Below, one piece after another: positions 19,621-19,806 of a stretch of 33,211 nt of DNA; the stretch's first letter is position 1; the number at the start of each line of letters is the position of its first letter. The notes beneath the pieces are model-generated. The model was given only the letters and a program-made list of their open reading frames with translations. It was not told where the DNA came from and made no database searches. The position numbers and the translations under genes are program-made. Source of the stretch: Minisyncoccia bacterium (lineage in GTDB: Bacteria; Patescibacteriota; Minisyncoccia; Phycocordibacterales; Phycocordibacteraceae); NCBI GenBank assembly GCA_038912545.1, contig JBCLFD010000004.1, positions 1 through 33,211 of the forward strand. The letters run 5' to 3'.

Positions 19621-19806
19621 TCGCGGTGTGACTTCGGTCGCACCGCGAAGGACTAGGACGATTGTAGGGTGAACAGAATGCACCAAGTTACCTGAGTATG
19701 GAGTAATCCGTACTTTGTCCAACAATGACTCAAATGAGAGGCCATACGTCATGATCCGCGCAAGCGGAATAAGATATGGTCCTTCGCGTGTTAAAAGGAA
19801 ACGAAG
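19621..19806 (+). mobile_element. 186-nt group I-like intron after 23S U1931-equivalent, no ORF
   Basis: Splits GTCCTAAGGT|AGCGCAATTCC; follows U, ends in G; P7 gaggcca/tggtcc, J8/7 AAGATA, P8 tccgc-gcaa-gcgga. Confidence 0.8.

Follow-up and report, generated by a model that had tools for sequence, protein, structure and literature searches.

An insert of 186 nucleotides (nt) in the 23S rRNA gene of a Minisyncoccia bacterium is probably, judged by comparison with its relatives, a natural group I intron that lacks the P4-P6 domain, is maintained by selection and is still spliced. It lies on contig JBCLFD010000004.1, positions 1 to 33,211 of which were analysed here (33,211 nt, called the window in the following), at the site that corresponds to U1931 of Escherichia coli (L1931). 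The initial annotation, made from the letters of the window alone, had noted that only 8 nt separate P3 from P7. This is confirmed, and it is not a peculiarity of one genome: among 56 short introns which we collected at this site, the spacer has 8 nt in 35 and 5 nt in 19 (54/56; the other two were not scored as they failed a strict rule of 5/5 pairs in P3).

Borders of the insert and the host gene

The contig is one of 28 in a 534-kb assembly that is 82% complete. According to Rfam models, the window holds a bacterial 23S rRNA gene from 17508 to about 21990 and a 5S rRNA gene at 22094-22207. The bacterial large-subunit (LSU) model was aligned through ...CGUCCUA, left 189 bases unaligned and resumed at AGCGCAAUUCC. 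Read directly, the 5' exon ends in CCUAAGGU (t19620), the 3' exon begins with AGCG at 19807, and the insert runs from 19621 to 19806 with G19806 as its last base. Since the mature rRNA must read CCUAAGGUAGCG, these borders cannot be shifted. The borders, P3, P7, P8, J8/7 and the terminal G were all found by direct reading where the initial annotation had put them. The insertion site is a universally conserved single-stranded joint beside helix 69 (H69), not the tip of a helix.

The gene is interrupted several times. Besides the insert at L1931 there are about 54 extra bases near the 5' end in the Rfam alignment, a hairpin at 19476-19575, 426 nt at about 20469-20894 and 827 nt in the sarcin-ricin region. 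The window's assembly (host genome G000) has one 23S gene only, and in all five other hosts of short forms that were checked the intron-bearing copy is the sole 23S match as well (6/6 with the window's genome). One genome of the same genus has an uninterrupted CCUAAGGUAGCG junction, and the other four had no exact match to a 20-nt junction pattern. The intron thus is sporadic among close kin.

Comparison with longer introns at the same site

Canonical group I introns at L1931 were found in the Candidate Phyla Radiation (CPR; L006-L015), in Armatimonadota (L079/L039) and in Actinomycetota (L063/L051/L096); they are also known from Thermotoga, Simkania and chloroplasts. With the window's intron they have in common the exact site, P7 (GAGRCC/GGUCC), J7/3, the J8/7 sequence AAGAUAU, the P3-P8 pseudoknot, a guide that pairs with AGGU, and a common tree. 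They differ in possessing J3/4-P4-P5-P6-J6/7, for which the window's intron has 8 nt instead. These long forms measure 257-694 nt and carry a canonical P4-P5-P6 exactly where the short forms have their spacer of 5-8 nt. Their P3-P7 interval extends over 75 to more than 400 nt, often with an open reading frame (ORF) for an endonuclease, and includes UAUAUGCNGGGAAG...CCNCAGGGAAG; the general layout is P3, then UAUAUGC(N)GGGAAG (J3/4, P4, J4/5, P5), CCNCAGGGAAG, the P4' and P6 part, and CCCUCA directly before GAGACC of P7. In an alignment of six sequences the P4-P6 block of the long forms falls wholly within the gap of the short ones.

The Rfam group I model RF00028 matched the long forms L010 (60.3 bits), L063 (47.6 bits), L079 (45.5 bits) and L014 (35.2 bits), of which only L010 exceeds the cut-off of 50 bits. 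For the short loci L020 and L044 this model gave no match at E<=1.

Thus, the view of the insert as a group I-type intron at L1931 without P4-P6 is upheld by its relatives, with one correction. Far from being spare sequence in which a P4-P6 might hide, the approximately 100 nt 5' of P3 make up a 5' domain of their own, which short and long CPR forms have in common. We considered whether this domain could be a displaced or permuted P4-P6 and rejected the idea, because the long CPR forms have this domain plus P4-P6. The possibility raised earlier that another fold might recover a complete P4-P6 fails for the same reason, as the long relatives place P4-P5-P6 in the gap and share the upstream domain.

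Long and short forms also differ at the splice sites. Five long CPR introns (L006, L007, L008/L017, L010 and L014) do not end in G; four end in A and one in C, and it is exactly these five whose guide, GCUGCCU, has the G of a U.G wobble. In L015 and in all short forms, an A in the guide goes together with a terminal G. Altogether, a terminal G is present in 6 of 11 long forms. As a side observation, L014 contains a 155-nt match to a tRNA model at 1227-1381 on the minus strand (41.7 bits, cut-off 29) inside a stretch otherwise covered by the 23S model; this might represent an insert resembling a tRNA, or else a tRNA with an interruption.

A family of short introns

Relatives were searched by BLAST in 401 genomes of the window's order and by two-block pattern scans of contigs from one genome per species. 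BLAST matches were obtained in 16 of the 401 genomes, the window's own included; by this method the insert was not found in 5/5 other genomes of the same genus nor in the 1/1 other genome of the same family. A phylum-wide pattern search hit 4 of 401 genomes including the window's own, and the other three were not short L1931 forms. A scan with the bare 15-mer ATGAGAGGCCATACG was abandoned, as it returned mostly chance matches in unrelated phyla, in favour of two-block patterns. The two-block scans yielded at least 125 stretches, then 38 and 18. In the genomes with BLAST matches, everything between CCTAAGGT and AGCGNAATTCC was extracted, which gave inserts of 178-694 nt. The collection rule delivered 68 distinct inserts in total: 56 are short (178-229 nt), and the 12 longer ones include L314, an artefact that the rule produced at a locus whose junction is uninterrupted.

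Nearly all of the short forms are from Patescibacteria-labelled genomes, with record labels Paceibacterota, Nomurabacteria, Kaiserbacteria, Adlerbacteria, Taylorbacteria, Minisyncoccia and Saccharibacteria and a few oddly labelled small bins. All 56 end in G. Of these, 45 were aligned with MAFFT, each flanked by 20 nt of the 5' exon and 12 nt of the 3' exon (alignment A1). Its mean column identity is 51%; these are not near-identical recent copies.

Structure and covariation

The elements of the window's intron are listed in Table 1. Across the family their order from 5' to 3' is Pa, d (GGAC/GGAU), a' (12-14 nt), e, the guide, P2, d' (GUCC/AUCC), the core and the terminal G; within the core, P3 is followed by the spacer, P7, P3', P8, J8/7, P7' and P9. 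Of the ribozyme core, these introns keep the half made of P3, P7, P8 and P9; in addition they have an elaborate 5' domain.

Table 1. Elements of the L1931 insert and its exon partners (positions in the window)
Element	Position	Strand	Basis
5' exon stretch (3' side of the H69 region), target of the clamp	19603..19616	+	14 base pairs (bp) with 19654-19667 in the minimum free energy (MFE) fold
AGGU, last four exon bases, 5' strand of P1; splice site after U19620	19617..19620	+	complements ACCU at 19690-19693
Pa, hairpin of 12 bp closed by a UUCG loop, starts at intron base +1	19621..19648	+	folding
d (GGAC), 5' strand of a long-range helix, partner d' at 19717-19720	19650..19653	+	covariation
a', exon clamp UAGGACGAUUGUAG	19654..19667	+	pairs with exon 19603-19616
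e, small hairpin (GGUG/CACC) whose loop has the conserved motif (G/A)AACAG	19668..19684	+	motif in A1; helix by eye only
Internal guide GUUACCU; GUU/AGC = P10, ACCU/AGGU = P1	19687..19693	+	complement of the junction
P2 hairpin, GNRA loop GUAA at 19703-19706	19695..19714	+	covariation
d' (GUCC), 3' strand of helix d-d'	19717..19720	+	covariation
P3, 5' strand AUGAC	19725..19729	+	pairs with 19748-19752
8-nt spacer UCAAAUGA, in place of J3/4-P4-P5-P6-J6/7	19730..19737	+	comparison with long relatives
P7, 5' strand GAGGCCA with bulged A (guanosine-binding helix)	19738..19744	+	pairs with 19777-19782
P3, 3' strand GUCAU	19748..19752	+	alignment A1
P8 hairpin UCCGC-GCAA-GCGGA	19755..19768	+	4/5 pairs covary
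J8/7 AUAAGAUA, fits the group I consensus AAGAUAU	19769..19776	+	AAGAUA at 19771-19776
P7, 3' strand UGGUCC	19777..19782	+	invariant in 45/45
P9 (UUCG/CGAA)	19783..19805	+	3/3 pairs covary
Terminal G (omega-G)	19806..19806	+	G in 56/56 short forms
AGC, first three bases of the 3' exon, partner in P10	19807..19809	+	RNAalifold; pairing count in A1

The insert alone folds to an MFE of -66 kcal/mol, compared with -46.9 +/- 4.0 in 200 shuffles (z -4.85, 0/200 as low). With the flanks included, the MFE fold pairs 14 exon bases with 19654-19667, at z -6.86. The two ends of the insert are not paired with each other; the 5' end is in Pa and the 3' end in P9. When the proposed structure of 50 pairs was scored on alignment A1, 97.5% of the cells were paired, compared with 85.3 +/- 0.5 in 500 shuffles (0/500 as high), and sliding the partners by 1-3 columns left 30-47% paired. 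The covariation score was 0.384 versus 0.148. In these counts one d' base that MAFFT misplaces in 19 rows appears as gaps, and Pa, shifted by one base in one subfamily, was excluded and checked by folding each sequence.

The initial annotation had drawn its fold by eye and named an alignment of homologues as a check; in the 45 short forms P2, P3, P8 and P9 covary. P2 changes on both sides in 6/6 pairs and is 99.6% paired, with a GNRA loop in the alignment rows read; P3 covaries in 4/5 pairs and is 100% paired. Changes on both sides are likewise seen in the exon clamp (4/14 pairs), in P8 (4/5) and in d-d' (2/4), where columns 77 and 193 form C-G in 22 and U-A in 22 sequences. Both strands of P7 are invariant, and AAGA-A-U of J8/7 is invariant or nearly so; the same motif is seen where the third intron of this 23S gene is aligned to the Rfam group I model.

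Across the family a' complements the exon stretch AACUAUAA(Y)(N)GUCCUA; eleven of the clamp pairs are 98% paired, and three pairs change on both sides where the exon varies, a' tracking the exon variants from CG to GU/GC/UA and from UA to CG. The 7-nt guide, G(C/U)UACCU in the family, matches the ligated junction AGGU|AGC as its reverse complement, with one G.U in the window's copy. P1 (AGGU/ACCU) is paired in 99.4% of cells; here the exon is invariant, and its role as the 5' strand of P1 is an inference without covariation. P10 was proposed unprompted by RNAalifold and is 100% paired in the 45 aligned forms. A canonical P1 hairpin made from the exon clamp and AAGGAC was considered and rejected, because GGAC covaries with the downstream GUCC and GCUACCU fits both P1 and P10; in that hairpin the exon bases AGG would face GAC and stay unpaired. 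Intron base +1 is paired at the foot of Pa in 45/45 short forms (median 12 bp, -18 kcal/mol), although the hairpin sequences differ. The family consensus of the e loop is UAAACAG. At the other end, the P9 loop AGGAA (19796-19800) complements UUCCU of the 3' exon (19814-19818), and its RGGRA motif is shared by all 45 short forms and the long forms alike. This pairing may be a 3'-exon clamp that mirrors the 5' one; as the exon is invariant there, covariation is impossible.

Phylogeny and origin

A maximum-likelihood tree was calculated from 184 shared columns; the fill filter had removed those of P4-P6. The 45 short forms all group in one clade (support 93/87), which appears in 92% of the bootstrap trees. 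Some long branches were flagged. The short clade is sister to L015, and a wider clade encloses it together with L010. A P4-P6-bearing long form, L015 has an A in the guide, a terminal G and an ORF of 173 amino acids (aa) that contains a LAGLIDADG-like motif (by eye), starts in the P4-P6 stretch and overlaps the 3' core. That the short forms can be aligned with the long ones over the 184 columns, and their place beside L015, mark them as descendants of group I introns at L1931.

The simplest account is a single deletion that took P4-P6 together with the endonuclease gene. It would have reached from the start of P4 to J6/7, and a homing-endonuclease gene in the P6 loop was probably lost with it; the spacer resembles a fusion of the opening bases of J3/4-P4 with the final base of J6/7. 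The terminal branches, at 0.01-0.9 changes per site, point on this account to a long persistence after the deletion. All of the covariation is within the short clade and therefore arose after the deletion, which argues for continued selection on what is left of the fold.

Hosts labelled Saccharibacteria, Nomurabacteria and Kaiserbacteria share a tight clade with the window's copy (98/95). More generally, short introns of Saccharibacteria-, Nomurabacteria-, Kaiserbacteria- and Paceibacterota-labelled hosts are intermingled in well-supported tight clades. With host labels taken as recorded, this hints at lateral spread between CPR lineages of an intron without endonuclease gene.

A proposed mode of action

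How could a group I intron work with half of its core? In the model we propose, exon bases -18 to -1 and intron bases +1 to +12 would together make a single unbroken strand of a rod, whose partners would be a' (14 nt), the guide ACCU (P1, the last 4 nt) and the 3' strand of Pa. The scissile bond would lie at the nick between P1 and Pa, and d-d' would tie the rod to the strand leading into P3. With its GNRA loop, P2 would probably dock on the base of P8, which is rich in C-G, in the manner of the L2-P8 contacts known from other small group I introns. A free guanosine would bind P7 and attack after U1931; then GUU of the guide would pair with AGC of the 3' exon (P10), the terminal G would enter P7, and the exons would be joined. 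The absent parts are J4/5, which reads the U.G wobble, the triples of J3/4 and J6/7, and the scaffold. Tethering by the clamp and the d-d' pseudoknot would replace the docking and scaffolding by P4-P6 (J4/5). That the splice-site U faces an A and not a wobble G fits the loss of J4/5, and since the sister L015 already has the guide A, the U-A pair would have preceded the deletion.

There is a precedent for activity of such a core. An engineered T4 td ribozyme without P4-P6 was active at an approximately 1000-fold reduced level (Ikawa et al. 2000, cited in PMC2879505), and with about one-thousandth of the activity retained, slow but real catalysis would be plausible for slow-growing CPR cells. 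A stronger version, in which the P3-P9 half, tethered by exon clamps and pseudoknot, would splice alone in cells as an autonomous ribozyme, we regard as tentative and on balance rather doubtful.

Several points weigh against splicing by a P4-P6-less intron, or against the evidence for it. P4-P6 normally supplies J4/5 and, as known from the Azoarcus structures, one ligand of the catalytic metal. The splice-site pair in P1 is U-A in 45/45 short forms and not the near-universal U.G. RF00028 gives no match to the insert at E<=1 (19380-20000 scanned). P1, P10, P7 and the L9-exon pairing involve invariant bases and have no covariation support. Pattern-based sampling favours conserved cores and excludes the UCAGAG context typical of long forms, so that the long CPR forms (6) are under-sampled and the single origin of the short forms is provisional. 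None of the 24 sequencing runs listed represented the host (each at most 24% of the sampled words). In three metatranscriptome runs and one DNA run the depth at 19658-19743 was zero in all four; their reads covered conserved exon parts only and came from other community members. Finally, the engineered deletion is about 1000-fold slower (PMC2879505), and a title in the reference list of PMC11270868 (Everett et al. 1999) speaks of an unspliced 23S group I intron in a chlamydia-like bacterium.

Alternative explanations

The slowness of the engineered deletion, a poor enzyme (PMC2879505), also speaks for a P4-P6-less remnant that would be completed in trans, be it by a P4-P6-like RNA such as another group I intron or by a protein. 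Partners would be at hand. The genome has other group I matches (C3, 70.3 bits; C7, 45.7 bits) in addition to the third 23S intron, which encodes a LAGLIDADG_1 protein (34.5 bits), and LAGLIDADG proteins can act as maturases (PMC11270868); group I matches were also obtained in 4/5 other hosts of short forms, three of them above the cut-off. However, no P4-P5 module of this lineage came up elsewhere in the 82%-complete assembly when it was searched with an nhmmer profile built on the J3/4-P4-P5 region of 10 long forms (best E 3.9), a weak test that covers the lineage sequence only, and in the host genome G401 (about 0.8 Mb, of unstated completeness) RF00028 gave no match at E<=0.01. Moreover, the short forms show no docking-like site specific for a foreign P4-P6, their long sisters sharing every other element. 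We therefore consider completion in trans unlikely, if the best of the alternatives to be kept in mind.

The insert might also not be spliced at all, and either stay as an expansion of the 23S subunit interface or be cut by a nuclease without ligation, giving a fragmented 23S rRNA in the style of RNase III. The intron named in the title by Everett and co-workers fits retention and reportedly sits at the same site. The exon clamp and Pa make up a long, nearly continuous duplex. Short unclassified CPR inserts may include RNase III-type intervening sequences (PMC11270868). Against both variants, a diverged clade has preserved features needed for group I splicing only, namely a terminal G in 56/56, an invariant P7 with bulged A, J8/7 and a guide to both exons; the insert's ends are, unlike those of intervening sequences, unpaired with each other; and the joint by H69 is single-stranded and conserved where a helix tip would be expected. 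An RNase III intervening sequence was rejected on this anatomy, with ends in Pa and P9 and no end-to-end stem, and so was an archaeal bulge-helix-bulge intron. Hence we judge an unspliced insert to be improbable. Less probable still is a recently crippled intron without maintained function, decaying and caught before its loss. The absence of BLAST matches from 5/5 genomes of the genus and the 1/1 further genome of the family, and the uninterrupted junction in one of the former, would suit it. However, the 56 distinct copies are from as many or nearly as many species genomes, compensatory changes occurred within the short clade after the deletion, and the sole 23S gene carries the insert in 6/6 genomes. 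The degenerate intron that the initial annotation had listed among its options is disfavoured by this covariation, the invariant core and the conserved terminal G. This leaves a maintained and spliced P4-P6-less intron as our preferred explanation.

Relation to known introns

The intron in tRNA-Ile of Azoarcus has about 205 nt, and GNRA loop contacts (L2-P8) hold its compact core together. Like the window's intron it is a very small bacterial group I intron, but it has a complete P4-P6 and the U.G wobble at its splice site. A similar architecture is found in engineered P4-P6 deletions of the Tetrahymena and T4 td ribozymes, in which the P3-P7(-P9) catalytic unit is kept and P4-P6 is absent, and which demonstrate that an RNA of this kind retains catalysis (as described in PMC2879505). 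Those were made in the laboratory, are about 1000-fold slower and have neither exon clamps nor a d-d' pseudoknot, whereas the window's intron is natural and conserved.

Natural group I derivatives that lost core or peripheral parts and yet are removed from rRNA in vivo are known from fungi and lichens. The degenerate Phialophora/Arthonia-type introns of fungal and lichen ribosomal DNA have 56-81 nt (PMC3160393), and lichen introns that are about 100 nt short were incapable of self-splicing in vitro (PMC8527467); help by the exon context or by host factors has been proposed (PMC3160393, PMC8527467). These are derivatives of eukaryotic nuclear IC1 introns and lost much more or different material. 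A clean loss of P4-P6 only, with a covarying core, is not among the descriptions in the relevant parts of the two papers.

For CPR bacteria, Tsurumaki et al. 2024 (PMC11270868) classified rRNA insertions with Rfam and, in the sections concerned, name 1931 as a recurrent site and report LAGLIDADG_1 genes. They also mention short (<200-250 bp) inserts without ORF that match neither Rfam intron model and are called 'uncharacterized' or RNase III-type. These are from the same organisms, with 1931 as a recurrent site, and a group I architecture without P4-P6 is not described in those sections. The title of another paper in the same reference list announces a Coxiella 23S intron that lacks the canonical omega-G. 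A full-text literature search did not bring up any account of a natural bacterial group I intron without P4-P6.

Further inserts within the gene for 23S rRNA

The hairpin at 19476-19575 is a near-perfect palindrome of 100 nt with an A/T-rich tip and replaces a stretch of 31 nt of the 23S model just upstream of H69. It had chance-level microRNA matches only, and an identical contig of 140 nt was present in one DNA run. It could represent either an expansion segment or an intervening sequence of the RNase III type.

The second intron (20469-20894, 426 nt) lies near E. coli position 2593. In its build it resembles the L1931 insert: it starts with a 5' hairpin followed by the guide GAACGGUCUGAA, which complements the last 11-13 exon bases, and has P7-like and J8/7-like motifs near its 3' end; RF00028 gave no match at E<=1. 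A heptad-repeat hairpin at about 20727-20795 has GCAGTAA three times, facing CTGCCTA-type units. The third intron (20964-21790, 827 nt) is inside the sarcin-ricin loop region, with an RF00028 score of 30.3 bits, below the cut-off of 50. Its ORF at 21102-21590 encodes a single-domain LAGLIDADG_1 protein of 162 aa, whose 34.5 bits exceed the cut-off of 23.1.

Related introns occur in tandem in many genomes of Actinomycetota and in one Saccharibacteria-labelled genome (loci L063, L096 and L300; pairs L028/L029, L033/L034, L055/L056 and L085/L086). The upstream intron ends in ...AUG just before CCUAAGGU (E. coli about 1923), which leaves 8 exon bases between the two. In L300 the upstream intron splits the target of the L1931 clamp, and this suggests an order of splicing.

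Implications

The textbook definition of a group I intron comprises two core domains, P4-P6 and P3-P9, of which P4-P6 is regarded as the folding scaffold and as the reader of the wobble pair at the splice site. By descent and by most of the defining features the insert at L1931 belongs to this class; the P4-P6 domain is missing, and the Rfam threshold is not reached. Finders of introns that are based on Rfam models miss the short forms, and P4-P6-less introns would explain part of the 'uncharacterized short insertions' in CPR rRNA genes.

A conserved P4-P6-less lineage in the only 23S gene of its hosts asks for the minimum that group I catalysis needs in vivo. Exon clamps, a pseudoknot tether or a host factor are candidate stand-ins for the lost scaffold. 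Good material is available in natural pairs, the short forms versus their sister L015, and in a small RNA of about 180-200 nt suited to structure work. If the intron should indeed act autonomously, P4-P6 would be dispensable in nature, a 'minimal/ancestral group I' form would exist as a thriving lineage, and this lineage could spread between CPR lineages without an endonuclease gene.

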